Shown here: piece after piece, positions 657 through 42,800 of the stretch
Layout: the number at the start of each line of letters is the position of its first letter
Position numbering within the stretch: position 1 is the stretch's first letter
Origin: Verrucomicrobiota bacterium
GTDB taxonomy: Bacteria; Verrucomicrobiota; Lentisphaeria; JABSQK01; JAJFLO01
Direction of reading: 5' to 3'
DNA: 64,000 nucleotides
Assembly (NCBI GenBank): GCA_021772675.1
Contig: JAJFLO010000244.1
Span: 1,468 to 65,467 of the forward strand
Position numbers and translations under genes: made by a program
The notes under the pieces: model-generated
Told to the model about the DNA's origin: nothing
Databases searched by the model: none
The model's input: the letters and a program-made list of their open reading frames with translations, nothing else

Positions 657-875
657 ATGCAGCAATTCAATTCCAACAAGATGTGGTCCCATGTCTTTCT
701 ACGTTTACAATTTCTTATCTATAGCTTTAGCCGAATCAAATCTCGTTTAAACGGCGTGCATCCCCAACAGAGCAGATGCGGCAGTCAGCTCAGGCTGTCG
801 TCATTAATACATTCGCTGACGATGACGGTAATGATGGTTTTGACATTGTCATTAGCCGTTGATACTTCGTTTGCT
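657..875 (+). other. N-terminal 55-aa basic extension followed by a signal-peptide-like segment (MTVMMVLTLSLAVDTSFA|AD)
   Basis: Translation: MQQFNSNKMWSHVFLRLQFLIYSFSRIKSRLNG...SLT then M56 (ATG 822), a hydrophobic core and an A-x-A-like SFA|A site (cleavage between nt 875/876). Which start is used (657 or 822) is unresolved. Confidence 0.5.
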
Positions 876-12800: not shown

Positions 12801-15800
12801 ACTATTGAATTAGGTGCATTGCTTACCGTGTCCGACGGTGACGTGATTAATCCGGCGAATTCTGTTGTCGACTATGCGGGCAATGCTGATGCAACCGTCA
12901 ATGATATAGAGATTCGTATTGATAGTACTAAGCCCACCTTAGATTCGATAGAATGGGTCGATAATGGAGATGGATTCATTTCAGTTGACGATGTTTTGGA
13001 ATTGACGTTCAGCGAAATTTTATCAACTACATTCAGCAATATATCTTTAAATTCACAACTGTTGGTTTTCCCGCTGGACGGTATAACGCCAGTTCCAACT
13101 CCATGGGGATCAGCGACAGTTTCATCTAGTGTTGCAACAGGAACCACCGTTGTCAGAATTACGTTGACATCAGATTCTACCATAGCAAATGGAATGACAA
13201 TCGATCCGGCTGATACTGTTATTGATCAATCTAACAACCCCGATGGAACACCTGCTCCAGGTATTCGAATTCTTGATAATGTCCGTCCAAGACTCGTTAA
13301 TATTTCCTTCGAAGATCTGACGCCGGCGGACGTCACGACAGAATATGATACTAGCGATGTATTTATATTGACATTTACTGAACCGCTGAAGGTACAAACT
13401 TCAGCTACGCCACCAGTAGGCATTACATTTGATTCTTTCTCTGCTGATGGTATTTCCGTTACAGTTAGCAAATCAGAATTTGTAAATAATAACACGGAAA
13501 TAAGGTTAACGGTTGGAACTGGAGTGGAACTTTTAATACCCGGTCTGGCTATCGATCAATCATTTTTAGATACGATCAGCGATCCTGCGGGTAATTTGGC
13601 AAGAAATACAGATATACCGCAGAAATTGCCAAAAGCTGAAGCGGATACTGATAATGATGATTTAGATGATGTCTGGGAAATTCAACATTTTGGCAATTTG
13701 AACTTTAGTGGATTGGATGATCCGGACGGAGATGGACTGCGTAATTTAAATGAATTATTAACCGGAACCCTGCCAAACGACCCTGATACAGATGATGATT
13801 CATTTAATGATCTTACGGAGGTGACCGATGAATTTGGTGATCCGTTAGACTCGCTTGTTCCGGATATTGTTAACAATAATCCTCCATTTCGTTCTCTTGT
13901 TTTTGATGGGACGAATCGTATTAAACTGCCGGTGAACAACCGATTCGTGCTAAATACCTGGACAATCGCAGCCTGGGTAAACCCTGTCGCAGCGAGTGAC
14001 GGCGGTGTTGTCATTCGAAGAGTTGTACAAAAGTTGGGTAGTGGTGATCCGGTCATCGCTTATGAATTGGGTTTGGATGCATCGCTCACACCATACGTTA
14101 AATATACAGACATTAATGGACAGGAAGTATTATTAACCGCAGACGCACCTATAAGCGGGGGTGAGTGGTCGCACATTGCAGGTCGATATAATCCAAACAA
14201 CCTGCAGTTGGCCATCGTCGTTGATGGCTTCAAAGTAAAAAGAATATTGGCACAACGACAGGCAGCCGTTGTTGTCACAGGAGGATTTAACTTTTTGACA
14301 TTGGGCGCTGGTGGTTTTGAAACCGAACCTGTTGTTGACGGATTTAATGGTAAAATAGATGAAGTTCGATTGTGGAATAGAGCCTTGACATCTAAAGAAA
14401 TTGCTGATGTAAGATCATCTGTATCTGCCTCAAGTGCTATATCCTGGTTCAAATTCGATGATAAAGGGTTGCATGCTGAAGATTTTGTTCAGGTGCGCGA
14501 TTGGGAAACTAATTGGGCCAATGCTGCCCGCGTTGATACGCTCGGCTCGTATGCTGATTATGCGTCTATGCTGGTCGTTGAAAACTTTTTCCCACACGAA
14601 GAATTCGACCAGGACGATGATAGCGTATTTGATGGCTCGGGTAATCCCATAACATTGCAAATCGGCACAACAGAATCACCGATTAATGTAATTGCTGATT
14701 TTTCCGATATATCCGAAACCGAAGCGAGTTTTACAATTTCTGATTCTCTTTCACCTTATAAATCAATGAGTTTGGCATTTGCCGGAAATACTGGTGCTAA
14801 TGAGAATATAATTGAAGTCCCGGAAATTATAGATGTTGTCACGGACACAAGTGAATTATATAGTCTTTCATCATGGACAATTGAATTGTGGGTTAAGGTG
14901 GACGCTGCCCCAAGTGCAGATCAATCTCTCGTTCGTCGCGATTTGGCCAGTACGAAAATAAATTATGATCTTGGAATAATGCCAGGGGGCAGTGGATTTA
15001 TTCCCTACATTCAATACAGTCGGTCTGATGACGCTCCTGACGTTGTAGGCACGCCTGAAAATGAGAGTATAATCCGATTAGAAAGTACATTCAGTCTGGA
15101 GTTGGATACGTGGTATCATCTTGCGGTACGATTTCTGGATGATGATTTAAGGATGTTTATTGATGGAAACATCGTCGATAATATCAGTACAGGATTGGGT
15201 TGTAAGACTGGCCGTGGACAACTTGTGATTGGATCACCTGGGTTTACTGGTGGGATGGATGAAATTAGAGTTTGGAAAAATGATCCAACGGCGCGGAATG
15301 ATAGTGATATACTCGAATTTAAAAACAGGAATCTATTTTTTGGAACAGAAGCGGCTGGGGCGGCAAGTCTATCTGTTGACGGAAACGGTTTCATTCAGGA
15401 ACTTGCTCGCGAGGATTTTGTTGGTGATAGATTGCTTGAATGGACTGTAGAGGCCTGGTTTAAGATTAGTGATCCTTCAGCATCGGGAACTATTATTGGT
15501 CGGACAACTGGATTTGATGGAGAAGGAGCTCGCCTTTGGAATTATCGGTTGTTTATCGATGCAAATGGTAAGGTCACTGGTGAAGGAATTACACGGGCAA
15601 CATCACTTTTTGACGTTCGTGATGGAAATTGGCATCACGCTGCGTACATCTATAATAATAATGATGGTTCTGTATCTTTATACGTTGATGGCATTCCTCA
15701 TGACCGTGTTTCAGCGATAGGTACCATACAATTCGGTGCCGGACCACTTATTGTCGGCGAGGGATTAAATGGTTTTATCGATGAAACGCGGGTATGGAGT

Positions 15801-18800
15801 ACAGCTCGAACATTATCGGATATTAGATTGACACAAAATCAATCATTAACAGGAGGTGAATCCTTTCTGGTTCATTATTACGACTTTGATTTTCAACGGG
15901 ATACCTTTGGCAATATTTCTTTGATTCGCGAGCGTGCGTCTACCCGAAATCCCGATGAAGAATTTGGGTTGCTTATTAACGGAGCGTCTCTAACTGTTGG
16001 TGAGTCAAATAATGCACCTGTAAGTATTGATCCACTTAAACAATATGCCGGTAATCTTCTGTTATACATGGCGGCAGACGACGGTGGAAAAACGGTTGAA
16101 AACTTGATGCAACGGAATGACTTCCGCTTTGCAGGCGAACTAACTCCTGGTGTTCTGTTTTCCAGTAGTGACCGAGCACCGCTTGTTGTTGATGGTGATA
16201 ATGACGGATTGTTAGATGACTGGGAAACATTTTTTGGCTTAAGTCCAAATGACAATGGGGAGCTTGTGAGTAATAACGGTCCGTTGGGTGACCCTGATAA
16301 CGATGGATTAACTAATCTTTTCGAACAGATTTTAGGCATTGATCCTGGTGATATTGACACAAATAATGATAATACATTAGACGGGGATGAAGATTTTGAT
16401 GGTGACGGATTATCCAATCGTGAAGAAATCGCGTTGGCACTTGATCCATCAAAGACGGATACGGACGATGATGGATTAACTGATCAGCAGGAGTTGACGA
16501 GCAATTCACTCGCTGGGAAATCGGATGATCCGTTTGTTTTGCGCGTTCTTAATTTTCCCGGAAATGGTATTCTTGATAATGCTGCTCGAGTTATCGGTGT
16601 CGCCGGTGTTTCTAAGCTGGAGCGACGAACCTTTGTTATCGAAGCCTGGATTAACCCTGACAATCAAAACGGTGCCATGGGTGAAATTCTCCGCAAGGAA
16701 TCGACGTTATCGGGAAATAGAATCAATTATTCTATTTCTTTAAATGCTGATAATGAAGTTTCTCTCTCTTACGATACTATTTCAGGGGTAAGAAAAACGT
16801 TAACATTATCTGGCCGACCTCTACCTCGGAATCGTTGGTCACATGTTGCCATTGAAGTTGTGGGTGGGTTTACTGCAAGTATCAGTGGATTTGGTAGTTT
16901 TGACTCGGATTGGCGCAGTGAGTCTATTACAATTTACGCCTTCATTAAGAATCCGTTGGGAGTATTTGAAGAGCATTCAATTTCAGAATCTGCCTCTGCA
17001 ATACCGGCTGTTGGTTTAGGCGACTTGGTTCTCGGTGAAAATTTTGATGGACAAATCGATGAGATCAGGATATGGAACCGCGAGATTGCGGGTGGACAGC
17101 GAACGCTTACTGACATTCAGAATAATCGATTCAATATACTGGATACGTCATCCTTTGTGACTGGTGAATTGGTTGCTTATTTCAGGTTTGATGATGGACA
17201 AAGTGACTACGTCGCACTAACTGACACTGAAGCGGATTGGACTGAAGTATTTCATGTTGAAAGCGGTGATCAGATATGGAACGAAGCGGATGATTTCATC
17301 TTTCTCGATAACAACAATAATGATATCTTTGATGAAGGTATTGATGATGAACTTGCCGGTAATAAAAATGCTGCAGGCGCTGTAGTTGCCGGTGTCAAGG
17401 ATGCGAATTGGACACGTGTTAAAATTTTTGATCAATCGGATGGTGGTAATTATGATAATGCTCGAGATGCAATTGTGTTTTCCATTAATAATCTATATGA
17501 TCCTAAAAATAGTGATGATGCTGTATTAAGCGGTAAAACTCCAGATTTTCCAACAGGTGCTGAAGATTTTACGGATCGATTAAAGGCGTCAAGTTCTGCA
17601 GTTCTTGGACTATATGTTAATTTTGAAGATAATTTTGGTGGTTTTGATTCTGTCGATATTGATGGTGATAATTTGCCTGATGGTTGGGAATTAAGATTTT
17701 TCCAATCAATTACGATTACGGATGGAGCCAATGATTTTGATTCAGATGGGTTAAATGATTTTTATGAATTTCTCTCTGGAACCGATCCCACAAAAATCAA
17801 TACTGATGGCGTCGGCAAAAATGATGCAGATGAAGATCTTGATGTCGGTGGGCCAGATGGTTTATCGAATATTGAGGAACAGCAAAACGGGACGAACCCA
17901 TTAGTAGCGGATACTGATGATGATGGTAGCGATGATAAATTTGAAATTGATAATGTAACGAATGCACTTCATCCGATGAGTGTACCAAACCTAGCAAACC
18001 TTAATGTAGCCACAGAGCGCAGCTTAAGTGTCGGAGATATTGGTTCCAATGGCGTTGAGTTACCTTTTTCTGATCGGTTTGCATTTGGACGTGACGCATG
18101 GACTGTTGAAGCCTGGGTGAATCCGGGTAATAATGTCGCTTCAACAAATGGTGATATTTTTGTATTTACTAGTAATATTGTCGGAACAGGATATCGATTG
18201 TCATTGCAGAATGGTCGGCCACATGGTGTTATATTTCAGGGAACAAATGTTATTGTAGAGGTTGGTGGAGATGGAAAGACGCCGGAATTGGAGGCAAATG
18301 AGTGGACTCATTTGGCAATTACATGGTCGCCATTGGAAAATTCATTTCGGTTATATCACAATGGTCTGCTGCTCATGGCAAATCAATCGATTGCTAATCC
18401 GGAAATCCCAATTCCGGGTGTTGCTTATATTGCCCGTGGGGCGGATACGAATGGAGATAATACTCGAGATGGATTTGACGTTAGTAACAGCAGTGTTTAT
18501 TTAGATGAAATAAGAGTGTGGCGACAACTAAGGTCGACTGTAGAAATTGAAGCGGCTCATAATCGCTTAATCCCTGTTGGGGTTAATACGGCTCCCACCT
18601 TATTGGCATATTACCGCTTTGATGATGGTGGAAATTTCGTAGAAGACTTCGCACAACTGAACAATTCTGATTTTGTATTAGATATCAAATCAATTAATGC
18701 CAATGGAATATCAAGTGCAGAAGCCATTTCTGTTCTCGGTACCGATGACAATGATGGTGACGGACTTCCGGAATGGTGGGTTGTTCTCCATGGTTTGCAA

Positions 18801-21800: not shown

Positions 21801-24800
21801 CAATGGACGGTGGAAACATGGTTTAAGACGGGATCCTCAGATGGTAATTTGATCGCAAAAATCAATGAAAATATTTCGATTGATTCCGGCGATCCGGTAT
21901 CCTATAATTTTAATCTGCAAATATCTCAAGGTCGACTACGGGGACGCAATACTGTCATTTTTACTGATACTAGCAAAGTTGACGTTGTTGTTAATACTGA
22001 ACAACATTTTGACATAGAAGGTGATCAGTTTGTCAATGATGGTGAATGGCATTATGCGGCTTATACCTGCGATGGCGATAATGTAACCCTGTATCTTGAC
22101 GGAGACATAGAAGCAAAAGGTAGTTTTTCAACTGCTGATTTCGCGTCAATAGGACCAATTGCCGGTGTTGGCCCTATTCGATATGGTGATGGTATAATCG
22201 GTCAACTCGATGAAATCAGAGTTTGGAATCGCGCTATAGCAGCAGCTGAATTAAATAAAAATAGAAAGAAAACGATTCGGGGAGATGAAACGGGTTTAAT
22301 TTCTTATTTCAGTTTTGACTATCAACCCAAGTTGGATGGAAATCAGTTATTAGTTAATGTTCTGGATCGATCCGTTCTCAGAGAACCGAGTGAAGCGTTT
22401 GGAATATTAATTAATAATGCTCGTCGAATTACGCTTAGCTTAGATGGGCAGCATGTTAATGCCCCGATTGATATCGATGTGCTGGCAACTTACCAGAACA
22501 TTATGCTTCGCTATTACTCTTTTGATGATGGTGGAGAAAAAATTGAGGACCTGTTGCATCGAACGCGTCAGGCGATCAGTGTTGATTCAGCACCGAATGA
22601 GGACGGTGAATTATTCTCCGCAACGTTGTTTAACCAGGTTCAGTTTGTAGAAGGTCCGGGGGCGTTGATTGTGGATGCTGACGAGGATGGATTGCCCGAT
22701 GCCTGGGAATTGCAATTTGGTTTAAATGCCGGAGCTAATTTCGGAGCCGATGGCAAAGATGGCGACCCGGACCAGGACGGTATCAGCAATCTTCTGGAAT
22801 ATTTATTGTTTGAAAATACAGGTGTTAGCTATAATCCCATGAATATCGATACAAACGCAAATGGTATTATTGACGGCAATGAGGATGAAGATGGTGATGG
22901 TTTAATTAATGCAGAGGAATCATCTATCGGCGCACTGCCCTGGCGATTTGATACAGATGATGATGGTGTGTCAGATAAAGATGAAGTCGAAAATAAAACA
23001 GATCCCGATTTTTCAGTGGATCCCTCACAAAAGCTCTCGGTTAATTTCAATGGTGGAGTACACGATTATCTGGTGGTTAAAGGCTTGCCAGCGGAACAAA
23101 AACTTGAATTGTCTGACTTTGCCGTTGAAGCCTGGTTAAATCCTGATAATGATAGTGGTAACTCTGGAATTATCGTTCAAAAACTACGGAATCTGGACAG
23201 CCGGGCGAACTTCACTCTCGGTATCACTGCCAATAATGAACCCTATGTTGAATACGAAACCATTAGCGGTGCAAAAGTTAATGTGACCTTACAGGAAGCA
23301 GTACCTAAGGGACAGTGGAGTCATATTGCTGCAACATTAAATCGTCAATTAGTCTTCCAGGCGAATGATGAACCATTTGATGAACTCATATTGTATTTAT
23401 ACAAGCCAAACAGCGATAATACTTTTACGTTATTTCGTACGATAAGCAAATCATTTGGTATTCCGTCTCAGGGGACCGGTGATTTGCGTATAGGTGAGAC
23501 ATTTGACGGTCAATTGGATGAGGTTCGCATCTGGAATCGTGCCCGAACGCAAGAAGAAATCACCGATTTTAGAGATCGTACCATTTTTGGGGATGAAGAG
23601 GAGCAGGATGGTAAAGATAATAACGGCAATACCTTAATTGATGAAAATGGAGAATCGACATTGGCGGCGTATTATCGGTTCGATGATTTTGAAAATACAG
23701 GTGTTCGCTTTGTCGATACAGATGGTAATGGAAGCTATAGTGATAATGAACCTGTATGGGTAGAAGTTGGCGGCAATCCGGCAAACAACGGGAGTCGGAC
23801 CGCATTTAATACGGAAGTTCTTGATGGCAATAATAATGTAATCGCTGTCGCGGATATTATCATTAATGGCGCCCCGGCCAATGGGAATGAAGGCCTGGGG
23901 TTAATATCGTCAGTATTATTCTTTGATAAAGACGACAGTAAAGGCTTTACCTCAGGTGATTTAGTATGGCAGGAATTATCCGGGGATAAGTTTTTTGATG
24001 CAGGCAAAGATATCGTTATTTTAGATGATGCAGCCGAGCTGCCGGCGTTGATGGTACATCTGCTTGCAGATCCGCAAGATCCTCGAAGGGCATTTATTCG
24101 ATTTCTCTCCGATCCAAACGGCGCTGAAGATTTTACCGACCGGTTGAATTGGAATTTTGCGGCAAGGCGTAATGCTGTTAATATCACCTGGGTTGTGGAA
24201 GAAAACTTCCTAAATGCCGATACGGATGGCGATGGGCTACCTGATTTCTGGGAGGATCAATTTTCTGCCCAAAATCCGAATAATCTATTAAAAAACAATA
24301 CCGACAGTGATGGTGACGGCATTGATGATGAGGCAGAAGATTTTGATGGAGACGGGTTAACAAATCTTCAGGAATATCTGGGTGCCGACGGTTTTCCCGG
24401 TACGGGTGACGGCACGAATCCTCAACAAGCTGATAGTGACGGAGACGGTCTGGGAGACCGTTGGGAAATTGATTTTCAAACTATATGGAAAACTGATAAA
24501 AGTGTATTGGATGATGTGAATTTGGGTACAGCTGATCCGGTTCAGTTATTTAATTCCACTATATTTGATACAGTGACAACTGATGCGGCAGATTCCGACG
24601 GAAATGCTGACTATGATGCGGATGGTGCGACCAATATTATTGAACAAAATCTTGGCTCAAATCCGTTCATCAAAGACACCGATGGCGACACTCTTAGTGA
24701 CGGTGAGGAAAATAATTTTGGTACAAATCCAACGCTGGTTGATTCGGATGGTGATCAATTAAGGGATGATTGGGAAATTCGTTTTGGATTTAATCCTTTG

Positions 24801-27800
24801 GTCCTGATGGATAACACCACTGATTTTGATAATGACGGTTTAATACTGCTGGAAGAAAGTCTTGCTTTAACTGATCCCACCAATGCTGATACGGATAATG
24901 ACGGGATTATTGACGGGGATGAAGTCAATTTATATCAATCTTCTCCCCTGCTTCCTGACACAGATGACGATGAAGTAAACGATAAACTTGAAGCTGAAAA
25001 CGGTAGTATCCTGGTTGATTCGCTAAGCCCGTTATTGGATCGTGTTTTGAGGGTGACTGCAGACAATAGTGATCCATCATTAGATTCTTACGTTTCGTTC
25101 TCTGATAATGATCGTTTTGTGTTAATAGATTTTACCATTGAGGCATGGGTCTTTCAGGACTCACTTTCTGAAAGTGTCATCGCAAAACGATATATCGAAA
25201 ACGTCACTTTCCCGAATAACGAACAAATTAATTATGAATTAGGTATTGACGGAAATTCGCTTCCCTATATAAGATATTCTGATGTTCTGGGCATTGAACA
25301 CAAGTTGACAGCGATAGCTGCAATAGGAGGAGGAGTTCAGACCGGAGTCTGGACACATATAGCCGTCAGTTTCAATTCAATAACTCGGGAACTAAGAATT
25401 TATTTGAATGGACTGCTGGTTGGTTCAAATCGCAATACTGCTGTCCCCTGGATAGGCGGTGAAAATGCAATCATCCAAATCGGCAAAGGCTTTACCGGAT
25501 TAATCGATGAATTAAAAATCTGGAATATTACCAGAAGCGCTAACGAAATTGCTGATAACAGAATATTGTTTTCGACGGGCAACGAAACGGGTTTGGTTTC
25601 ATATTTAAGATTTGACGATGGTGGAATATTTGTTGAAGATTTTACGCAACTAAATGATTGGCAGAATAATTGGATCAATTCAGCAATGTTAATCAATGGA
25701 AGTATTACTGAAAGTGCTCCAAGTGACGCACCGGTTACAAGTAAAGATGTTGATACGGATGGCGATGGCTTGCCGGATTTCTGGGAAGATTTACATGGCT
25801 TGAATCCTCTGGACAGTAGTGGTTTAAATGGCGCTGATGGTGATTTGGATGGTGACGGGATCATAAATTTAAATGAATTTCAGGCTGGGTTAAATCCAGG
25901 CAATGAAGATACGGATGCAGACGGTACCAGCGACGGTAACGAAGATACGGACCTTGACGGATTGTCAAACTTTGATGAACAAAACAATTATAACACAAAT
26001 CTGGGCAGCAGAGATTCCGATGAAGACGGAGTTAGTGATGGTGCGGAGGTTTCCGGTGATCCAAATAACAGCGGTGTTATAAATCCTGAATTAATTTCCA
26101 ATCCAAAATTAAGCATGTCACATTTTGATCCCGTTACCAATGATTTTACACCGGCGCGCAGTTTGGATTTTGGCATTGTTGCTTCCGAATTGACGTCTCA
26201 AGTGCCCCCTTTGACCTGGACAGGGATTCAAGTACCGCTTGGAAGTCGATTTAATAGAGCCGGAAACCCGTGGTCCATTGAATCATGGATCAAACTGGGC
26301 AACGATGATACTGGTATTATTGCAATATATAAGGTGGAGGGTAAGGCTGCAATGGAACTGGGTATGGAAGCAGGAGCGCCTTATGTTAGTTTTGAAACCG
26401 GAGGTGGCCGCAGCTATAAGGCGGGTGGTTCCAATGCACTCGATTCTTTAAAACCCAATGAATGGAATTATGTCGCTGGAGTATGGGATGTAGGCAATTT
26501 TCAAAACGTATTATTAATTTATGTAAATGGAATACTGAAAGGCAGCTTTATTTCAAACGAAATACCCATTGTGGGAACCGGAGAAATGATTATCGGGGGT
26601 GACGGCAGTGGAACTTCAGATACGACATTTAGTGACGGTAAGATTGATGAGGTTCGAATTTGGAAAACAGCGCGGTCTGCTCAAGACATTAAAGCTAATT
26701 TCAGAAAGCAAATTAGTGAGAAGAACACCGACCTAATCGCGTATTATCGGTTTGATGATGGTGGACTTACTATCGAAGATTTTTCCAATTCAATTCAATT
26801 GGATTCTTCAGCAGATGAATTTGCATTAGATTTGACTGCATTAGGAGTCTCCACGTCGAATGGAACTTCAAACGCGCTTATTACGGACGACGTACCTAAT
26901 ATAACAGGATTTGACAGCGATGACGACGGCCTCCTGGATTTATGGGAAATACAATTTTTTGGAAATGCCGAAAGTAAGGATGGAATGGAAGACAGCGATG
27001 GAGATGGATTGACCGACATCTCAGAATTTTGGTCCAATACCAATCCGTTGGTATCAGATTCAGATGGTGACGGTATTCCGGATGGAAAGGAAGATTTTGA
27101 TGGAGATCAGCTGCAAAATATTGAAGAGCAGAGTCTACAGACATTCCCTCAATTCGAGGATTCCGATGATGATGGACTTAATGATGGATTTGAATTATCG
27201 GACGTGGGAACTTTACCAAATGATCCGTTATCGCCATCTACTCAAATAAGTTTGGACGTTAAGGAGGGGCTGTTTGCAAGTGTCGAACATCAGGATCGGC
27301 ACGATTCGGAAAGCTGGACAATCGAAGCATGGGTTTACCCGCGAGGGCATCGAGCAGGGAATAATACGGGGGGACTTTTAAACATTGTTCAGCGACAAAC
27401 AGGAGCAATTAATGCTGGGGACCTCATTCACTATGAGATGGGTGTTGATGAAGATTTTTACTATCCGTATGCACGATTTACCACACGGTTTCAGCAGAAT
27501 GAAATCGACAGTATAGAAGTAACACGGTTGGATATAAAGGGTATTAACACAGGAATCTATTACTTTGATGCGAATGCAAGCGGGGACTATACTGCAGGAG
27601 AGTTTATCTGGAGGGATGAAATTGCAATAAATTCTAATTCTCAGGTTTATGATGATTTGACCGATGTCCGAATTCTTCCTGAAGCAGACGACAATGCATG
27701 GGCCGCATTAAATGGAAACCGGGGTATCACTAAGGGAGTTTTCTATTTTGATCTTGATAATAACGGCATCTTCACACCGGGGGAAGAGTTATGGAAGGAT

Positions 27801-30800
27801 GAAAGCACAGGTCGAAGCGGCCTCTATGATTCCGGTATAGATTCACGGATTAATACTATTAATACGTTTGGCTGGGAGGTTAAGAACGGCGATGGCGGTG
27901 TTAATCATGGAGATATTTTCTTTTATGACGTGAATGGAAACAATGTTTTTGACGGAACAGAAGATGTGTGGCAAGATGTTGAAGTACCTGGTGTTACGGT
28001 TTTAGGAACATTTGATTTTGGTCTCGATACCCAAATCGCTGGTGGGGCGGATGGATGGAATACCTCAGACGGACAGCTCGGTGCGGCTGAAAGTAATATG
28101 TTATTGTATAATGACGCGGATACCAACAATGAGTATACGATCGGTGAGAATATTTGGTTCGATAATAACGACAACGGACTTTATGATGCTGGGAGCGATG
28201 GTATACCGTTAACCAGTGATGATGACGATGCTTATGTTTATGATGGCGGTGTGTCTAAATGGACTCATTTAGCGGTGACTTATGATTTTGAATCAAGGGA
28301 ACTTTCAATATATCTTAATGGCGAGTTAAGAAATTCCGTGAAATTAAGTATACTAAACCGTCCTTCTGTGGTCGGAAACGGACAAAGCATCATACGTATT
28401 GGAGAGAATTTTGATGGATATATTGACAATGTCAGAATATGGGCCGTTTCTCGAAGTGCTACTGAAATACTTGATAATTTCGAATCTGCATTCAGCCAGT
28501 CACAAGCGCTGAACCAGGCGGTAATAAGAGTTTTTGGTGACTTTCTTACAGATGTTCGCTATCGCGAAAATGGCGATGGCGTGTTTACTCCGGGTGTAGA
28601 TGATGTCTGGATAGATGTGGGATTTTCACATGACAGAACAGATCCATTTACGGCACTTGATACCACGGTATTCGCTCTGGATGATCTGGGCATTCCGATC
28701 GATCAGCAAGGTCTTGCACTTGCAAACTTTCGGTTTAAAGATAATGATTCTAATTTTCTTTTTACAACCGGTGTCGACGATGCCTGGATTGACGTTAACA
28801 GAAATTCTCGTTTTGATAGTTTTGAGTTGATTGTTGTTGAAAATGGCAGTCTGTCCGAGGGCGATTTCGGGCGTTCTAGGAATGGTGTTTTTTATAGAGA
28901 GAGGAGCGCAAATGGTAAGTTTGATCAAGGAAATGATGACGCCTGGATTGACAGAAATGCAAACGGTTTTTTTGATACGGGTTCCGTCGTGTTTGACGAT
29001 ATCTTAGGGGAATTTGTTCAATTACCAAATGAGACTGTTCTCTCTCAGGGAAAGACATTAAGAAATTTCGATGCCGGTGTTAATTTGTTAAATGTTCTTT
29101 TTAGAGACAATAATCTTGACGGTATTTTTACCGAAAATGTGGACGATGCATGGCTTGACGCTGATTCCAATAAACGCTTTGATATCGGAGAAAATATTGT
29201 TGTTAATAATGGGGAACCTCTTGGTGTCGGCAAGCCGTTGTTGATCGCAAATTTTAATTTCGATGATGGTGGTAATTTTGCGAATGACGATACCATAGTG
29301 AATACTCCTCTAGATAATTGGTTTTATTCTCTAAGAATCTCCGATAGCAATGGCTTCAATTCTCTGACAGATGTAAATTCAAGCCTGACTTTTGTTGTCA
29401 CCCGCTTCCAGGATTTTGACGGTGACGGCCTTGACGATACTTGGGAATTTGAAAATTTTGGAGATTTATCAGCGACAAATGGCGGCACCAGTGATGCAGA
29501 TTTGGATGGTTTAACCGATACATTGGAATTTCTATTTGATTCGGATCCTAATGATCCGGATGGAGATACCGATAACGACGGGTTATCGGATTTAGATGAA
29601 TTTAATTCAGGTTCAAATCCGCTGGTTTCCGATACCGATGATGATGGAATTAGTGATAAGCAGGAAGTGGATTTTGACTATGATCCGATTGAATCGGCAA
29701 ATGTGTATCATCAACGCTATCTTAGATTTGACGGTACTGGGGAAATGGTGGTACCCGCCAAAGTTAACAATTCCTCCGCGTCTGAACAACGATTTAATTT
29801 AAGAGAATGGACGATAGAAACCTGGCTCCGCATCAATGAGCCAAGTAACGGGGCAAATATATTCAAAAATGTTATCAAAACCGATTTGGGGTCGGTGATC
29901 AATTATGAACTGGGCATTGATGATGGAGCCGAAACTGAGGCCGACATGGGGAAACTTTTTGTTAAGACACAAGTTCCTGCATTGTCACCGGCAATCATGC
30001 AAAAATCTAAGGATCCGATTCAAATTGGAAATTGGGTACATGTTGTCGCCCGGCTTACTACAACCAGTTTGGATTTGATCGTAGATGGTATCATATCTAC
30101 AAGAATCGCAGTTATCCCGGATGCAATAAATTTTCCTGATGAGCCGGGAAAATTAAGTATAGGCGGAGCAGGATTTAAAGGTGATTTACATGAAACACGA
30201 TTGTGGAATCACAGTCGAAGTGAGAGTGAATTAGCGACGTGGCGTCAACGATCGCTATTGTTTGACCGACAGTCCTCCAGTGATGATGCCGATTCTGCTG
30301 AATCATCAGGCAACTCCTTTACAGCAAAGAGCATTAGAGGCATAGATGTCGAGTTTATTCCGGAAACAAAGGCGGGTACCATTACCAGACCTCCTCTTCC
30401 GGCGATCAAGGTGCCTCACGTTATTCAGTATGTCTATGAGGAAAGTAAGAACTCGAAAGATTTTCTCAGACAGATGACACTGTCAGCCCGGGCAAGAATC
30501 CTTAAACTGCCGGAGACATTTGCAGTGATTGTCGGGCGGCATCGCGATGGGCTATTGGATCAAACAAGAGGGGAAACTCCACTTTCTTTTCATAATATTG
30601 ATGTTGATACACGCAATGAAATCAGCAATATTGATTTCGGTATAGTTGTTACTAATGAAGGTACGGTATTTGGAATAGTCAATGGTGTCTCAGTAGCACG
30701 AAATGCGATACAGGTATACGAACCTTTGGTAACTGATGATCAAGGTGTAGTGGCGGAAGCTACCTGGAAAAATCTTGTTTTAGTTAATGATGGAGTCACC

Positions 30801-33800: not shown

Positions 33801-36800
33801 TCGGATGAATGGGAGGTTGCAAATGGACTCAATCCTAATTCACCTCTTGGAAATAATGGATTTGATGGCGATCCCGATAATGATGGATTAAATAATTTGG
33901 AGGAGTTTCAGGCTGGGACAGATCCTCTTGTTCTTGACACGGACAATAATGGCGTCAACGATGGGTTTACTGATCTGGATAATGACGGTTTAATTGCATT
34001 AGACGAAATTAAATTTGGAACAAATCCTGGGGTCGCGGACACTGATGACGACGGTATTATTGATGGTCGGGAAATCCATTTATTGAAACCAACACAAAAT
34101 GCGAGTCAAACTGGACTTTTTTATAATGACCTTAATGGTAATAGCAGTTATGACTTGGGGGAAGATCTATGGAAAGATGAAGCGTATAAGGTTCTTTTCT
34201 CTGCTGAGTCTGATTTTCAATCAGAATTGAATAAAGGAGAAATACCATTTAGTTTGATGAGCAATTTTGAGGATAACGGCATTTCGTTATCCACTACTGC
34301 GGTTGTTACTGTGATATTAGAAAGTAGTGAATGGAGAATCACGAGTGATACAAGAGAATTCATTCTCAATAAGAAAACTGATGAATTAATTGTCGCAGAT
34401 TTTTTAATTACGGGAACAAATAGTGAATATGATGATGGTGTTGATATTCCTGTATATGATGGTGGTGATGGATGGGAGACGGACAGTACCAATGATATTC
34501 CTGAAATCATGGGTGTCTACTTTAATGATGCAAATAATGACTCTGAATACAGTATTGGTGAGGATATCTGGGATGATCAAGTTTCAGGCAGGGACGGGTT
34601 ATATGATGATGCGATCGACAAGCGATTATTCAATGGAAACGATGGCTGGATCACGCACATAGAGCAGATAATTACCAGCCCGATTTATTCCAGAAGTCCA
34701 TTGATTCAAAGAAGTTTTATGCTACCAGAATTGAGTATAGAATTACCGGATCCGGTAATTCTTGTAACCGATGTTCAACGATACAACCGGCGGCGTTGGA
34801 CATTGGAAGTATGGATAAAACCAGCGTCTGCTAACGAAGTAGGTTCAATCGTTACTCGAATTCAAGATCTTACCAATCTCGTACAATTTGAACTTGGCTT
34901 GGAGCATAATATCCCCTATGTTCGATTTGAAACGCCTGCCAATGTTGAATATAGGGCCGTTGCGAATGGTATTATTCTTGAAAATGGTGTTTGGACCCAT
35001 ATTGCAGGCAGTTTTGATCCGGAAAGCAAATCTTTGAGACTGTATGTAAACGGACGCCTGTTTCAATCGTTTACTACCCTTGAAAATCCAGTATCGGGAT
35101 TCGGAAAAACATTCATAAACGGAATACCAGATGACGTTGATCGATTAAGTGGAATGATTGATGAATTCAGAATTTGGAGTTATGTAAGGTCAAATGAAGA
35201 AATTGAAAATAATTATAATACTACAATATTGGATGAAATTGGGATCGTATTAGATCGAGAAACTTTCGCTGAACCAATGTCTGAGTTAGACGTTGCTATA
35301 GATCCGGTTACAAAGTTGCTAAATGGTTGGTCAAAAACTCCAAATGTGGATGTGAACCAGTGGGAGTATGGCGTTCCTGTGGGAGGTGTTGCTACCGGCG
35401 AGAATGCATTCGCCTATAATTTAATCGGTAACTACCCCGCAGATTTGGGAAAGCAATTTTTACTTTCCCCAATTTTTGATGTCAGTGATTTTAGTCAGGT
35501 ATTGTTAGAATACAACCGCTTTCTTGCAGTCGATGCATCGTCAAATGCAAGTATCGAGATAAGTAATGGATCACGCGACGGTGATGGAAATTTAATATGG
35601 TTTGAAATATTCAGGAATTCTGGAAGATTGAGAGATAGCGAGTGGAGTAAGCGAACACTCGATATCTCACAATTTGCTGACGGCAAATCTAATGTCCAGA
35701 TACGATGGATTATGGGACCAACTGGCAGTGCTACAGCCCCCGGAGGGGCGGGCGGTTCCGGATCAGGTAGTCAAGCTGTTTTTAATGGTGAATTTGGTTG
35801 GCGAATTGATGATGTCGTTTTAACAGGACGGAACACATCACAAACCGTGACAGCTTACTTTCCATTTGATGATGGCGGAAAATTTATCGAAAATTTTGCT
35901 GCATTGGGAAATTTTGATTTGGCATTGGATCGTATTCGCCATGATTTAGTCATTGTCGACACTAATGAAGAAGTTAAACAGCTTCCTGGTCTTGCTGACA
36001 TTGACAATGATGGCCTGGCAGATTGGTGGGAAAGGCTGTTTTTTGGCAACAATCTTCTTATCACTGATGGAACTATTGATAGCGATGGTGATGGATTACT
36101 TGATAAATTTGAATTTATTCTTGGGACAAACCCATTTGATCTGGACAGTGACAGTGATGGGTTTAGTGATGCCAGCGAGGATTTTGATGGCGATGGGGTG
36201 TTTAATCTACAGGAACAATTATTGACCACCGATCCAACTCTAGTTGATACAGATGATGATAATGTCCTTGATGGAGACGAACTTGATGACAATACGGACC
36301 CAGCGGATGGCAATAGTCATATTTCGCCAACTGAATTGGCAATAAATTTTGCAGGCAATAGCCTTGATTACGTTCAGCTACCCCAGCAAGAGCGCTTCGT
36401 TTTAGATAAATTTACTATTGAAGCCTGGGTACGGCCATTTGCAGAAATACACACTGGTGAATCGGTTGCAAGTTTTAATGATGGGGAAATTATTCGAAGA
36501 GTATCTGGAAGTACATTTTTGGGAGGGGATCCCAATTCAATAATTTTCATAACAAATTTTGGCCTCAGGATCGTGGGTGGTCAATTTCAAGCGTATTTCA
36601 GCAGTAATCAAGAAGGTGGTGAAGTCGTTGCAGCGAGCCCTACGATTTTGCCTGCCGAAGTTGGGCTTATATCCTGGGTTCACGTGGCCGCAAGTTATGA
36701 TCCTTCTTTGAATGCCCTTCGCTTATTTGTTAATGGTCAACTTGTACAGTCTACAGTAAGCTCAAAAAGTTTAATCACGGATGGACCAGGTAGGGAATTC

Positions 36801-39800
36801 GTTCGAATCGGGGAGCAATTCAATGGAGATATCGATGAAGTCCGAATTTGGAAAGCGTCATTAAGTCAGCAAGTTATTGAAACGAATCTTGTCACGGCGC
36901 TGAATGGAACAGAAACTAATCTTATCGCCTATTATAATTTTAATGACAATAGTTCACTCAATCCAAAAAGTACCCAGGATAACGTCGGTGAATTCACAAG
37001 GGATTGGGAGAATAATTGGGGTAATTCAGGCATATTGATTGGCAATACAGCTTTCTTTGAAGTTATCGATAATCCACTGAACCCAGATGTTGATAGTGAC
37101 GGTGACAAATTACCTGACCGCTGGGAATTGGACAATTTTGGCGATCTTTCCATTGCCGATTCAACGACGGATGTCGATGGCGATAAATTACTGGATATAA
37201 ATGAATTTCTTATTGGATTAAATCCAAACGCCGTTGACTCAGACAGCAATGGAATATTAGATAGCGATGAAGATAGTGATGCAGACGGATTGATTAATGT
37301 TGAAGAGCAAAATGATTTCCAAACTCGTTTAGATTCTGCTGACAGTGATGATGATGGAATTAATGATAATATTGAAATTTCGTTTACCCTGCCAACAATT
37401 GATTCCGTTGAAGGTATCGCTAGTGGTTACAGTGGAGCCAGAACTCCGTTATCTCCATTTGTTCCCAGAAGTTTACGGTTGGAAGGCAGTGTCATATCCA
37501 TTCCAAAACCGGATCGGTTTGCGTTTGTTAGCACTGAAACAGTTGTTCAGGAGGGACCCACGGTAAATATTACCAGTCCTACGGACTCTTCAGATATAAA
37601 TGTGAGATTCGTAAATGTTTCCGGAACGATTGAATCGACATCAGATATCATTGGAATTCAATTTTTTGTAAATCAGCTTCTCGCAGATGAATTTCCGCTT
37701 AGTGAAGCCAGTTTTTCAAGGGATATAATTATCAGTTCAGGCATGAATGAAATCGCTGTCAAGGTTGAAAATGTTGAGGGACAATTTGGATTAGCTTTTG
37801 TTACAGTCAACGGAAGCTTTGCACCTGCAGATATTCGAGTTACCCAAACCTGGGGGCCCGCAGGGGATCTTGATACGTGGCTTGTCGATCCTCAAAACCG
37901 GCATATGGGCTGGACCGGATCCGGCCCGACATTTCCTCTGGAGCAGGCCGGTGAATCGGGGAATCCAGGACAAATTCCCGGTGCACAATTAGACATTGAT
38001 GATATACCCGGCACAGGACCAGAAAATATTACGCTAGAGCGCGACAACGCAGTGCCAGGCACCTATCAGGTTTGGATGAACAATTATTCAAATTCCAATA
38101 GCCCAGAATCGACGGTAAGAATATTGCTTCATGAAGGTACTCCAAATGAGAAACTAATTGAATTTGGTCCACAAAGTATGCCAACAAGTGATACTAACAG
38201 AAATGTTTCCGCCGCCTGGTGGAATACCACGAACATTGAGTGGCCAAGCGGCGTGTTAAGTCCTTCAGGGACAGAAATCTCACCAAGGAGTACTCGGGAA
38301 TCACTGGTAATTACAGAGCAATCTAATACTGGCTTTACAATTGAATTTTGGATTTATCCTGGTAGTGCCTCAGAAACTGGTTCAGTGATCGAATATCTTA
38401 ATTCCAGTGGCACTGCAGCCTATACTCTTGGTCTTAATGTGAACCGACCATTCATGCAGGTCTTGTCCGAATTACCAACGGGTTACGAGTCATTGACAGT
38501 TGATACCGCATTACCTGAAAATGTATGGTCTCATTTAACGTTCAGATATCGTTTTGACGTAAATGAAATGAGCATATCAGTCAATGGATCGTTTGCTGCA
38601 AAAACGGTTAAAACCATTATCTTAAATGAAGGCGGTACCGCAGTCATAGATAGTTCGTTTAACGGAATTTCATTTACCAATACAGGTATCGATGAATTAA
38701 GAGTCTGGAATACTATAAAAACAGAAAATAGTATAAATGCATTCAGACACAAATTTGTCGATGGTGCTAACGCCGCTTTAGTCGCAAATTTCCGATTTGA
38801 CGATGGTGGAAAAACGATCACCGATTACGCAAATACAGCGATCGAATTTGATTTACTTTCATTACTTGATCAACGAATTGATATATTGCCGGGAGGTGAC
38901 GATACCTGGGGCAATGCAGATGATGTGTTTGCATCTGATAGTGCAAAATGGATTGATGTTAACGCGAATAATATATTTGATATCGAAGACGAAGTGTTTA
39001 CCGACGCGAATAATGATAATATTTATAATGTCGGCGAAACGCAATTATTTGATGGTGGTGATGGTTGGACAAGTGTTCCGGATGTCTCCGTTGGACGTGT
39101 GGACAATCATAATGATCGGATTACCGCATTTCGGGCCGCATTAATAATCGGATCTGCGGAAGATTCCGACGGGGATGGCATAGAAGACTGGTACGAATCA
39201 TTCTTTTTCCGTGGCTTGACTGCAACTTCAGGACTAAATGACGGAGATAGTGATGGTCTGATAGATCGATATGAGTTCTTTGCTGGCACTAGCCCTCTAA
39301 ATAGTGACACGGATAGTAATGGAAAATCCGATGGCTTCGAAGATTCAATCGATGGAGATGGTCTTAGTAATCTTGATGAACAGGCACACTCCTCCGATCC
39401 GCGTTTGAGCGACACTGATGACGATGGAAAATCAGACAAAGCGGAAGTCTTAAGCGGAAATAATCCGACAGATTCTTTGGATCCTGTAGAAGCCAGGGCA
39501 CTGCATGTGTTAGGTAGCAGCTATGCAGAATCACCTATCGATACTCAACGCTATGGGTTCGACAGTTTTACAATTCAGGCGTGGGTTTACCCTTCAGATC
39601 TGGCTGCCGGTGGTGGTACTATTGACTCATCCATAATTTCCAGACAAGTCGGAACAGGAAAATATAACTACGATCTTGGTGTTAGATATAACACAGATTC
39701 CGATAAGGTTCAACCCTATGTAACCGTTTCTCCTAAAGATGGATCCACAAATGTTCAACTGATAGGAAATGTGATCTATTCAATTCCAATTAGTGATTGG

Positions 39801-42800
39801 TCTCATATTGCTGCAACATATAGTCGTGGTAGTCGATCGTTGGAGCTTTATGTTAATGGTCAAAAAATTTCTTCTACAGTTGTTACGAATGGCATAATGA
39901 CAACCGGTTTTGGACCAATCTGGGTGCGGTTTGGTGAAGGATTTACTGGATTTATTGATGAGGTTAGATTGGAGAAAACAGCTATAAGTCTATCACGAAT
40001 TCAGTTCGGCATGCATAGCCAGCCTGATATTAGTTCAGGACAATTGGCAGCCTATTTTAATTTTGATGATGGTGGAGATAATATTCATAATTTGGTATCA
40101 TCATTTAGCAGGGATTGGGAAGAGCAGTGGCTGCATTCTTTGATTGTGATTGGCAATGCTGTGGTTGAATCAGCCCCGATGGCTGTTCCAACAGTACAAT
40201 CTGGTATTGATAAAGATGGTGATGGTATCAGCGACAGCTGGGAACTACAACATTTCGGTTTAATTTCTCAAGTAAATGGCCGTGGTGATTTTGATAACGA
40301 TGGTGTCAATGATCTGTATGAATTTTTGAATGGTTCAGATCCACGATCGATTGGCTCAGATGCTGAAGATGACAAGGATAGTGATGGACTATCTACCATT
40401 GAAGAGCAGGCACATGGAACATTACCGCAAGAGCAAGATACTGATGATGATGGCCTGAATGATAAGGCTGAAATAGCGGCCGGGTCAAGTCCATTACATT
40501 CAATGAGTCCTCTAACAGAACGAGCATTGGATTTAGCACAAGTCGCTGCGACGGGAGTACAATTACCGTTTGCTGCAAATGAACTAAATAATCGGTTAGT
40601 CGATTGGACAATAGAATCTTGGATTCTAATAAAAGGAAATCAGACTGGGGCAATTTTAAGTAAATCTATCAATGGCCGTATCGGGTTTGAACTTGGATTA
40701 GTGGATAATGTGCCTTATGTCAGATTTCAAAAAGCAAGTGGAGATGTTAATATCGACTATTCTTCAAGCCAAAGTTCAGTGACTACGCCAGCCCTCCAGG
40801 TAAATAATGGGTGGGTACATTTAGCGGGTGTCTGGAATCGAGGCACTAATGTGCTTCGGCTTATTATTAATGGAAACACAATTATCGAGACACTGGTAGG
40901 CAGTTCCGTTTGGCCAATAGATGGATTTGGTTTAGTCACATTAGGTGCGGGGTTGGATAATGTTGTCATTGATGAGGTCCGAATTTGGAAAACCTTTCGT
41001 AGTCAAGTCGACATTGATAGTGATAGATGGAATTTGATTTCGTCAAAGAGTGCGGGTTTAGTTCGTTATTTCAGGTTCGATGACGGTGGTGATACTATTG
41101 AAGATTTTGCTCATCCCGGATTTAAAAATGAGTCAATATATGCATTTATAGCGCCGGGTGTTACCGTGTCTGATGCCCAAGCATATTTTGGATTAGATGA
41201 CCGTGACGATGATGGGATGCCGGACTGGTTTGAAAGTCTTTACAACGTTTCTGACGCTAATGAGGATTCGGATGGGGATCAACTTACAAATCTATACGAG
41301 TATTTTGGTAAGACTGATCCAATAATTAATCTTACGAGTGATTTGAAATCGGATCCGGATGGAGACGATCTTGATAATATTACTGAACAGAAATGGGGAA
41401 CTAATCCAAATATGTGGGATACGGATAATGACGGTTGGTCCGATGGGCATGAAGTGCTGGGTAAGGATGATATTGCTTTTGATGCAGATAATGATGGTAC
41501 TAGCGATCTAGCATCAAGTACCATATTACCACGTCGTCCAAGTAGTTTCACTTTTGCCAGTGATCCGCTAAGCCCATTACAGCCTGTTCAGCAAGCAAGT
41601 ATAAAGCTTACGGGATTGAATGTTGGTGCTGTGGTACCAGACAACAGTAAGTATGCTTTAAACAGCTGGACTATTGAAGCTTGGATTAGACCTACAGCGG
41701 ATAATTCTGGCGTGATCCTAAACCGTTCAGTTGGCTACAATAATGGATCATCCATTATTAATTACGAACTTGGTATCGCTAACGATAGCGGAGTGCTGCG
41801 ACCTTATGCAAAATACGTCACTCAATCCGGTGTTACCTATAGCGTTGGTGGTGCGGATGCTATCGTTCCTTTTGGCCATGTTTTGTCTGTATCCAATGGT
41901 GTCTGGACTCATTTGACTGCAACATTTGATCAAGCAAGTTATACATTGAGACTCTTTATTAATGGTATGCCGGTTGGCGAACGGATTGATTCGAGTGAAT
42001 TTCCAGTTTGTCCAGTGGCAGGAAATGGGCAGGCACTGGTCAGTACAGCTCCTGATACGTTTGTATTCGTTGGAGCAAGTGTTCAAATTGGCAGTGGATT
42101 TACAGGCAATATTGATGATATAAAAATTTGGGCTGGTGCTCGAGATGGCGACATAATATTCGATTCGTATCGTTCGGTTGATGCAAATGCCAGGGGCGGT
42201 GTCGAGCCTTTGAGTCATGATTCGTCCATCGTTGGCTCTGGTTTGGTTGATGTCAGTGTTTTGTTAAATGCGGATCACGAGACAGACGAATTATTGGTAT
42301 GCTATCGTCATGATTTGAATAAAATACAACGCGATGAACTCAATGAATCCATGAACGTCGTATTGATTAGAGAAAGTCCTTTGACGGGAATTCAGTTGGT
42401 TAAAATCGCGAAAGATAAATCGATGGCAGATAAGATTCTTGAGTTCAGGTCAAATAACGATGTGTTATATGTCGAACCAAATTACAAACTTAAAATTCCA
42501 AATGATATTATCGAATCGAATCAATCTGTACCGGATTCATTTTCCTTTCCTAATGATCCGAATTTCGATCAACAGTGGGGACTTCATAATATTGGACAAA
42601 CCGGTGGTTCCGCTGGTGCGGACATTAATGGTCCACAAGCCTGGGATATTACACGAGGTTCACGGGATGTTATCGTCGCTGTAATTGATACTGGTGTTGA
42701 CTATAATCATCCCGATATTGCTGGAAACATGTGGGTGAATGAAGGAGAAATACCCGGCAACAGCATTGATGATGATAACAATGGGTTTATAGATGACATT

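Follow-up and report, generated by a model that had tools for sequence, protein, structure and literature searches.

What is the acidic, repetitive stretch of ~253 residues that appears in the middle of a Laminin_G_3 (LamG) module of a very large bacterial protein, and has it split one domain or does it merely separate two? The protein is encoded in the 64,000-nucleotide (nt) stretch analysed here as a whole (hereafter the window; contig JAJFLO010000244.1 of a Verrucomicrobiota bacterium, positions 1,468 to 65,467 of the forward strand), and it is a secreted, adhesin-like giant multi-module surface protein. An initial annotation of the window had proposed that the stretch is a repeat array inserted as a domain within a domain and belonging to no named family, and both proposals held up. 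With a probability that we put at roughly 0.7, the insert is a four-unit tandem array of an uncurated calcium-loop repeat, nested in a surface loop of the LamG module and predicted to form a calcium-stabilised, beta-rich arm. The parts of the protein needed for this argument are listed below, with amino acid (aa) positions converted by nt = 657 + 3(aa-1).

657-50261, forward strand: host open reading frame (ORF), a single ORF of 16,534 aa
27231-27491, forward strand: N-terminal LamG half (aa 8859-8945), 'SWTIEAWVYP ... IHYEMGVD ... YPYARFTT'
27492-28250, forward strand: inserted array 1 (aa 8946-9198), a linker and four calcium-loop units
28209-28496, forward strand: C-terminal LamG half of the same module (aa 9185-9280), 'AYVYDGGVSKWTHLAVTYD ... 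LSIYLNGE ... GYIDNVRIW'

As judged from profile coverage, array 1 splits a single Laminin_G_3 module, and its flanks are complementary halves of one domain. We searched with a 205-position hidden Markov model (HMM) built from ten clean modules of the same protein, which recognizes about 30 Laminin_G_3 modules in the 16,534 residues; aa 8859-8945 matched HMM positions 2-83 (E 3e-12) and aa 9199-9280 matched positions 100-179 (E 1e-25), and the ~253 inserted residues stand where this paralogue profile has 16 positions. The distance from 'WTIEAW' to 'WTHLA' is accordingly 315 aa here, compared with 63-88 aa in twelve sister modules. Pfam likewise places two stretches of Laminin_G_3 (PF13385) within 27240-28460 (E 1.4e-12; 48.5 bits, with the cut-off at 27.6), and the second of them covers profile positions 79-146. 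For structure prediction of the whole module (aa 8855-9590), AlphaFold2 was given an alignment of 28 LamG paralogues that included no array homologues, because MAFFT misaligned mixtures of LamG paralogues or their pieces with repeat arrays. The resulting model shows the expected strands in both halves, with predicted local distance difference test (pLDDT) values of 62-96 for aa 8855-8953 and 76-97 for aa 9185-9284. Foldseek matched it to pentraxin, the LamG domain of PAPP-A, the N-terminal domain of neurotoxin Hc and domain 4 of AbnA, with E values down to 6e-5; all of these templates are jelly rolls (pentraxin/LamG/ConA-like), and the alignments are local, of ~100 columns, and alone cannot place both halves on one template. 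The model and the alignment put the re-entry of the LamG fold at 'AYVYDGGVSKWTHLAV', and the insert therefore occupies the turn after the 'YPYARFTT' strand; alternatively, 'EIDSIEVT' may be the next LamG strand, in which case the insert comes after it.

Within the insert, the initial annotation had counted four units at 27521-28255, which in frame corresponds to nt 27522-28256 (aa 8956-9200). Four units are indeed present, and the refined limits of the array, from about aa 8946 to 9184/9198 (nt 27492 to 28208/28250), differ from that estimate by no more than ~30-50 nt. The units are:

27552-27731, forward strand: unit 1 (aa 8966-9025), EF-type loop DANASGDYTAGE at nt 27567-27602
27732-27908, forward strand: unit 2 (aa 9026-9084), EF-type loop DLDNNGIFTPGE at nt 27750-27785, tail 'FGWEVKNGDG'
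27909-28094, forward strand: unit 3 (aa 9085-9146), EF-type loop DVNGNNVFDGTE at nt 27927-27962, tail 'DGWNTSDG'
28095-28208, forward strand: unit 4, truncated (aa 9147-9184), EF-type loop DADTNNEYTIGE at nt 28113-28148, without a GW tail

The motif originally proposed for these units holds in a slightly relaxed form, with four matches at aa 8969, 9030, 9089 and 9151 (spacings of 61, 59 and 62 aa), and it arose in 0 of 20,000 composition-preserving shuffles of the insert residues; units 3 and 4 deviate from the strict form, with asparagine instead of the proposed glycine at loop position 6. In iterated searches with an internal HMM, the units scored between E 3e-18 and 6e-16. Each contains a 12-residue loop, D1-x-[DN]3-x-[DNS]5-[GN]6-x-[FY]8-[TD]9-x-x-E12, between short beta-strands, and all four loops fit D-x-[DNS]-x-[DNS]-[GN]-x-h-[DTSN]-x-x-[ED], with suitable residues at the EF ligand positions 1, 3, 5 and 12. 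The initial annotation also saw such loops alternating with GW motifs. Units 2 and 3 have a clear 'G-W-x-x-x-[DN]-G' tail, that of unit 1 is degenerate ('NAWAALNG'), and the truncated unit 4 lacks one but has a second near-canonical loop, DNNDNGLYDAGS, at nt 28161-28196. Of the 253 residues of array 1, 50 are D or E, 10 are K or R, 26 are N, 33 are G and 31 are aromatic. The composition profile has no break at the insert, and there is thus no sign of foreign DNA or of an assembly join there.

The repeat is not peculiar to the host protein. An exhaustive HMMER search with a 14-unit profile against 1.84 billion representative proteins found 352 representatives at E<=1e-3, of which 87 reached E<=1e-10 and 11 reached E<=1e-30, counted as protein clusters at 50% identity. 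By comparison, word-index homology searches with the insert and with 14-unit and 40-unit profiles returned nothing and missed even the query itself, the index being evidently insensitive to this repeat family; a search of genome contigs with the 407-aa module gave three distant LamG relatives, from Verrucomicrobiota, Victivallales and Bacteroidota. The family is represented in TARA mesopelagic and other ENA/JGI metagenomes, in a Kiritimatiellota metagenome-assembled genome and in a Thermodesulfobacteriota genome, and no member has a name that refers to the repeat. Most members are large extracellular proteins, many of them thousands of residues long, with up to dozens of units each, in arrays of 1 to 9 units, while short members such as P0009 (197 aa) consist almost wholly of the repeat and contain zero Pfam families. 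The Pfam domains that co-occur with the repeat are all of extracellular types: dockerin, cohesin, PKD, cadherin-like, BNR, LamG, FG-GAP, SdrD_B, FGE-sulfatase and the barrel of glycoside hydrolase family 2. We conclude that the repeat is a real, widespread family missing from curated libraries. We also observed four whole proteins (P0018, P0020, P0032 and P0045) made of a short 40-50-aa form of the repeat ('IKFVDTNANGVWDSGEPVVYDANGNGVYDAGETVI') and ending in a dockerin, the latter assigned from a sub-threshold Pfam match in P0018 and only a weak EF-hand match in P0020; this short form has no Pfam family either.

A conservation profile of 601 units from the 150 best proteins defines the unit more closely. 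Its consensus starts with h-x-[FY]-x-D(97%)-x-[ND](90%)-x-[NDS](94%)-G-x-[WYF](88%)-[DTS]-x-G-[ED](98%), in which loop positions 1, 3, 5, 8 and 12 are D in 97%, N or D in 90%, N, D or S in 94%, aromatic (W, Y or F) in 88% and E or D in 98% of units, and continues after this first loop with x-[VIL]-[W..]-x-D(84%)-x-[ND]-...-[ND]-G-x-[YF](94%)-D-x-G-[DE](96%)-x-x-[IVL]. The tryptophan was invariant in a 40-sequence unit alignment and is still the commonest residue at its position (59%) over the 601 units, and four aromatic positions are conserved in all. The second loop is conserved in the same pattern as the first, and for this reason the unit is an internal duplication of a ~17-aa element of one strand plus a 12-residue EF-type loop. 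A complete unit of ~57-62 aa comprises two ~17-aa sub-repeats, each an aromatic-ended short beta-strand and an EF-hand-type Dx[DN]x[DN]G...E loop, and then a third strand; the long subtype adds a 'DGGDGW...G' connector, and the tail 'DGGDGW..T..G..G' is found in about a third of units.

When AlphaFold2 was supplied with a 32-row family alignment, aa 8950-9210 were modelled at a mean pLDDT of 77 and a predicted template modelling score (pTM) of 0.56, with three short strands per unit, no substantial helices and low confidence only at the LamG-derived ends. Foldseek found nothing significant for this array model in either the PDB (best E 1.6, template modelling score (TM) <=0.15) or BFVD (best E 0.78); the top non-significant PDB rows included tectonin 2, CRTAC1 and an RCC1-like propeller, and beta-trefoil lectins were also among the non-significant rows. 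Sequence libraries gave the same outcome, with Pfam at E<=1 matching the insert only through SdrD_B, below its threshold, NCBIfam at chance level, and a PDB sequence search only spuriously, in the linkers of maltose-binding protein fusion constructs. A match of GEVED to array 2 was likewise at chance level in Pfam. No curated family and no solved structure therefore matched the repeat, in agreement with the initial annotation.

The nearest sequence echo of the unit is thus SdrD_B (PF17210), at E 0.0027 and 18.3 bits against a cut-off of 29.7, over profile positions 2-25. In both, a strand comes after the shared signature 'h-W-x-D-x-N-x-[ND]-G-x-x-D-x-G-E', and both are found in extracellular adhesin-type proteins. 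However, 24 of the 112 SdrD_B profile positions are matched, the remainder of the B-repeat domain is absent from the insert, and the strand-loop element is tandemly repeated here, unlike in SdrD_B. When a unit profile was compared with a true SdrD_B by hhalign, 'DLVWDDANFNGIQDPGE' of the latter paired with the start of the unit, and the alignment covered only its first strand, its calcium loop and the strand that follows, at E 0.012 and a probability of 3.6%. Being partial and sub-threshold, the match does not make the repeat an SdrD_B member.

The loops had been called EF-hand or dockerin-like, and here the result was mixed. They do have the length of an EF-type loop, 12 residues, and its pattern: residues of ligand type occupy positions 1, 3, 5 and 12, position 6 is G (or N), and position 8 is hydrophobic. 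The closest resemblance in sequence, however, is to the N-terminal strand and calcium loop of SdrD_B and not to a dockerin. In the AlphaFold2 model the loops are flanked by beta-strands instead of helices, and position 8 is aromatic, which is why the PROSITE EF-hand pattern PS00018 had 0 matches in the insert; Pfam EF-hand models did not match it either. A canonical EF-hand, with helix-loop-helix architecture, was accordingly rejected for a unit that has the loop alone. Rigden et al. (2011, PMC3123361) describe at least twelve structural contexts in which loops of the Dx[DN]xDG type bind Ca2+ in nearly the same way. Bacterial TSP3 repeats (PF18884) and dockerin EF-hand pairs resemble the present repeat as acidic calcium-binding repeats of the same class of giant extracellular proteins; giant proteins of a 'dockerin-type', with many EF-hand and TSP3 repeats, have been described (bioRxiv 10.1101/2023.11.21.568195). 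The unit here differs in being longer, aromatic-rich and predicted to be strand-based. The TSP3 pattern DxDxDGxxDxx[DE] has 85 matches across the host protein, all of them outside the insert, and PF18884 did not match the insert; the RTX nonapeptide pattern GGxGxDxUx is absent from the insert and, indeed, from the protein as a whole. The insert is therefore neither TSP3 nor RTX, as first suggested.

The split module was found to hold more than the initial annotation described, namely a second array directly downstream of the C-terminal half:

28509-29234, forward strand: inserted array 2 (aa 9285-9526), four units of a shorter subtype, 'DDAWID', with no GW tail
29235-29291, forward strand: trailing 'LIANFNFDDGGNFANDD' segment (aa 9527-9545), HMM positions 183-201, E 2.4e-4 in a 331-aa search space

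Array 2 sits between the helix after 'RIW' and the trailing LamG strand of the same module. The 'LIANFNFDDGGNFANDD' segment, which AlphaFold2 modelled with low confidence, corresponds to the C-terminal 'LVAYYRFDDGG..EDF' element of every sister module, and this one LamG module seems to carry two inserted arrays. Iterated searches with the internal HMM located ~13 more units at six other places in the host protein (aa 5531-5571, 7682-7791, 9299-9520, 10318-10423, 11153-11333 and 12766-12805). At aa 5531-5620 (window 17247-17516) and aa 7682-7800 (window 23700-24056), arrays part 'YYRFDD' from 'GAEDFTD' by ~115-135 aa; 'FDDGG..VEDFT' is contiguous in ordinary modules, and the arrays at aa 5531 and 7682 thus mark a third insertion site. 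An unrelated metagenomic protein, P0126, matches Laminin_G_3 profile positions 1-110 (E 7.7e-17), continues with two units and resumes with the LamG end 'LRGHLDEVQFWN ... LVGYYQLD'; its units sit between profile position 110 and the 'LDEVQFWN' strand, in a different loop from that of the host. The units of array 2 are closest to one another (33-42% identity), while units 1, 2 and 4 of array 1 cluster with the long-type arrays at aa 10316, 11152 and 11285 (33-54% identity), a pattern that points to separate insertions followed by duplication in place. We also noted that MAFFT aligns the 'LVAYYRFDD' strand of the paralogues with a unit start, 'LALANFRFKD' (window 28716-28745, aa 9354-9363), and that the first strand and acidic turn of the repeat resemble the trailing strand of LamG; this likeness could be a clue to the origin of the repeat, or mere convergence.

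Nested insertions into jelly-roll lectins provide a precedent for this arrangement, in that a continuous guest leaves and re-enters at one loop and the core motifs of the parent are all kept. The guest here differs in being an open tandem repeat of variable length and not a compact globular domain, and the same guest family fills at least four different LamG sites. The units might even define a new class of calcium-dependent fold, in which mini-units of three strands, each clamped by a pair of EF-type loops, make up an open array. Such an array would serve as a loop-insertable cassette, found in at least four LamG sites (two in this module, a third common to two sister modules and a fourth in the unrelated metagenomic protein), and a unit of this kind in the host protein itself harbours a further small domain; we offer this broader proposal tentatively, and doubt it more than we believe it.

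Other accounts of the locus were weighed against nesting. If the flanks were remnants of two LamG domains and the repeats an ordinary inter-domain linker, no nesting would be involved, and other arrays of the host do lie between modules (aa 10318-10430, 11153-11333 and 12766-12812). Yet the two flanks cover consecutive, non-overlapping parts of the profile, no missing half was found nearby, each neighbouring module is complete (aa 8522-8711 on the N-terminal side, aa 9707-9866 on the C-terminal side), and a half jelly roll cannot fold alone, while both halves here were modelled at pLDDT up to 96-97; of all the readings considered we hold this one to be the least probable. The insert might instead be a small closed beta-propeller of the FG-GAP/VCBS (integrin) type, with each unit a blade bearing a calcium hairpin and both ends brought together by the ring. 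The ~60-aa period and the acidic DxDxDG-type loops in an extracellular, all-beta context do loosely recall FG-GAP blades, tectonin 2, CRTAC1 and the RCC1-like propeller are among the non-significant Foldseek rows, and the family member P0016 has true FG-GAP repeats elsewhere in the same protein. The resemblance nevertheless proved as loose as the initial annotation had judged it: the FG-GAP pattern is absent from the insert, no FG-GAP/VCBS model matched in Pfam even at E<=1, hhalign against a genuine FG-GAP_3 segment aligned 3 columns (E 0.36), and the predicted unit has three short strands instead of the four of a blade, with no structural match in Foldseek. The unit number is also variable, with no fixed count of blades, which argues against a closed toroid, and a propeller is very improbable.

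Nor do we put much weight on the view that the insert is an acidic, low-complexity, disordered spacer whose repeats reflect composition alone, although the bias in composition is strong and pLDDT drops to ~30 when the alignment does not cover the array. Conservation is position-specific and extends to the tryptophan, composition-preserving shuffles never reproduced the motif, and regular strands at pLDDT 77 appeared once homologues were supplied, and a disordered spacer is thus hardly to be expected. The main live alternative, which we regard as unlikely while giving it appreciably more credence than the others, is that the array is mainly a ligand-binding surface, lectin-like or mineral- and cation-binding, that extends the specificity of LamG. 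On this view, glycans or a cationic surface would be bound through the acidic loops and through conserved aromatics exposed on the array. The LamG/ConA-like fold is a common carbohydrate- and ligand-binding scaffold, four aromatic positions are conserved, family members occur alongside glycoside-hydrolase, BNR, dockerin and cohesin modules, and beta-trefoil lectins are among the non-significant Foldseek rows. On the other hand, each unit has few hydrophobic residues, and its aromatics are more simply explained as a mini-core, and neither Pfam nor Foldseek gave a significant match to a lectin family or fold.

Several observations also weigh against the nested, calcium-stabilised arm that we prefer. 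Both arrays reached only pLDDT ~30 in the whole-module prediction, because its alignment did not cover them, and the closure of the LamG sandwich around them is inferred from the complementary profile halves and the confident modelling of each. The arrangement of the units relative to one another is uncertain at a pTM of just 0.56. Calcium binding is predicted from loop sequence. The loops of units 3 and 4 have N and not G as their sixth residue, and units 1-3 each have a degenerate second loop. Any role of the arm beyond structure is putative.

Under the preferred interpretation of a nested arm, the acidic loops would bind Ca2+ as they do in other Dx[DN]xDG contexts. The array has few hydrophobic residues and a net charge near -40, and would therefore be expected to fold only where calcium is available, outside the cell. 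Each unit would be a small beta unit with two calcium-clamped loops that stiffens in the calcium-rich exterior, and the four stiffened units would project as an arm from the LamG sandwich, adding reach or extra binding surface to the adhesin-like giant protein. Tandem duplication at the site probably enlarged the array, and this type of repeat is unusually tolerant of lodging in loops. Secreted proteins of the multi-LamG/TSP3 type are thought to mediate surface attachment (compare bioRxiv 10.1101/2023.11.21.568195).

Looking more broadly at the host protein, Pfam searches of two 4,900-aa blocks counted 11 Laminin_G_3 stretches in one and 9 in the other and also recovered bacterial TSP3 repeats and an embedded S8 subtilase; the LamG modules are set apart by TSP3-like acidic linkers. 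The subtilase (Pfam E 8.7e-62) lies deep in the protein between LamG modules (window ~42264-43526, aa ~13870-14290) and is preceded by a fervidolysin-like N-terminal prodomain. At the beginning of the ORF (window 657-830, aa 1-58), the annotated ATG lies ~55 residues ahead of a likely signal peptide, and for this reason the real start may be the internal methionine at aa 56, where MTVMMVLTLSLAVDTSFA begins. The last ~200 residues (aa 16330-16534, window 49644-50258) contain recurring 'GWNL[IV]..P' and 'G.GYW[IV]Y' motifs and may be a candidate sorting or anchoring domain. Between modules, the non-LamG stretch at aa ~12301-12499 (window 37557-38153) gave sub-threshold matches to Glucodextran_B (24.7 bits against a cut-off of 27) and DUF2135 (17.3 bits against 22), and a candidate MAM-like segment lies near aa 11550-11740. 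Inside one repeat unit we found a small domain of ~60 aa, 'LN..I..L.S.F..GG..LS..A.V.vI...EW.I.dg..f.L.k' (window 34182-34391, aa 11176-11245), which is also present as a tandem pair near the C-terminus (window 47124-47492, aa 15490-15612).

Overall, two results go beyond the initial annotation: the same LamG module holds a second array, and the repeat is a widespread, uncurated family. For curators, the units provide a ready seed alignment and signature for a family missed by current curated libraries. The feature is a modestly novel building block and not a new kind of biological system, and it offers a clear natural example in which an open tandem repeat has been accommodated by several different loops of a jelly-roll domain. 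Such an example can guide the engineering of loop insertions in LamG/ConA scaffolds and help to explain the diversification of giant adhesin-like proteins. If the cassette proposal is true, such repeats would be a general route by which giant surface proteins gain projections without disturbing their parent domains.

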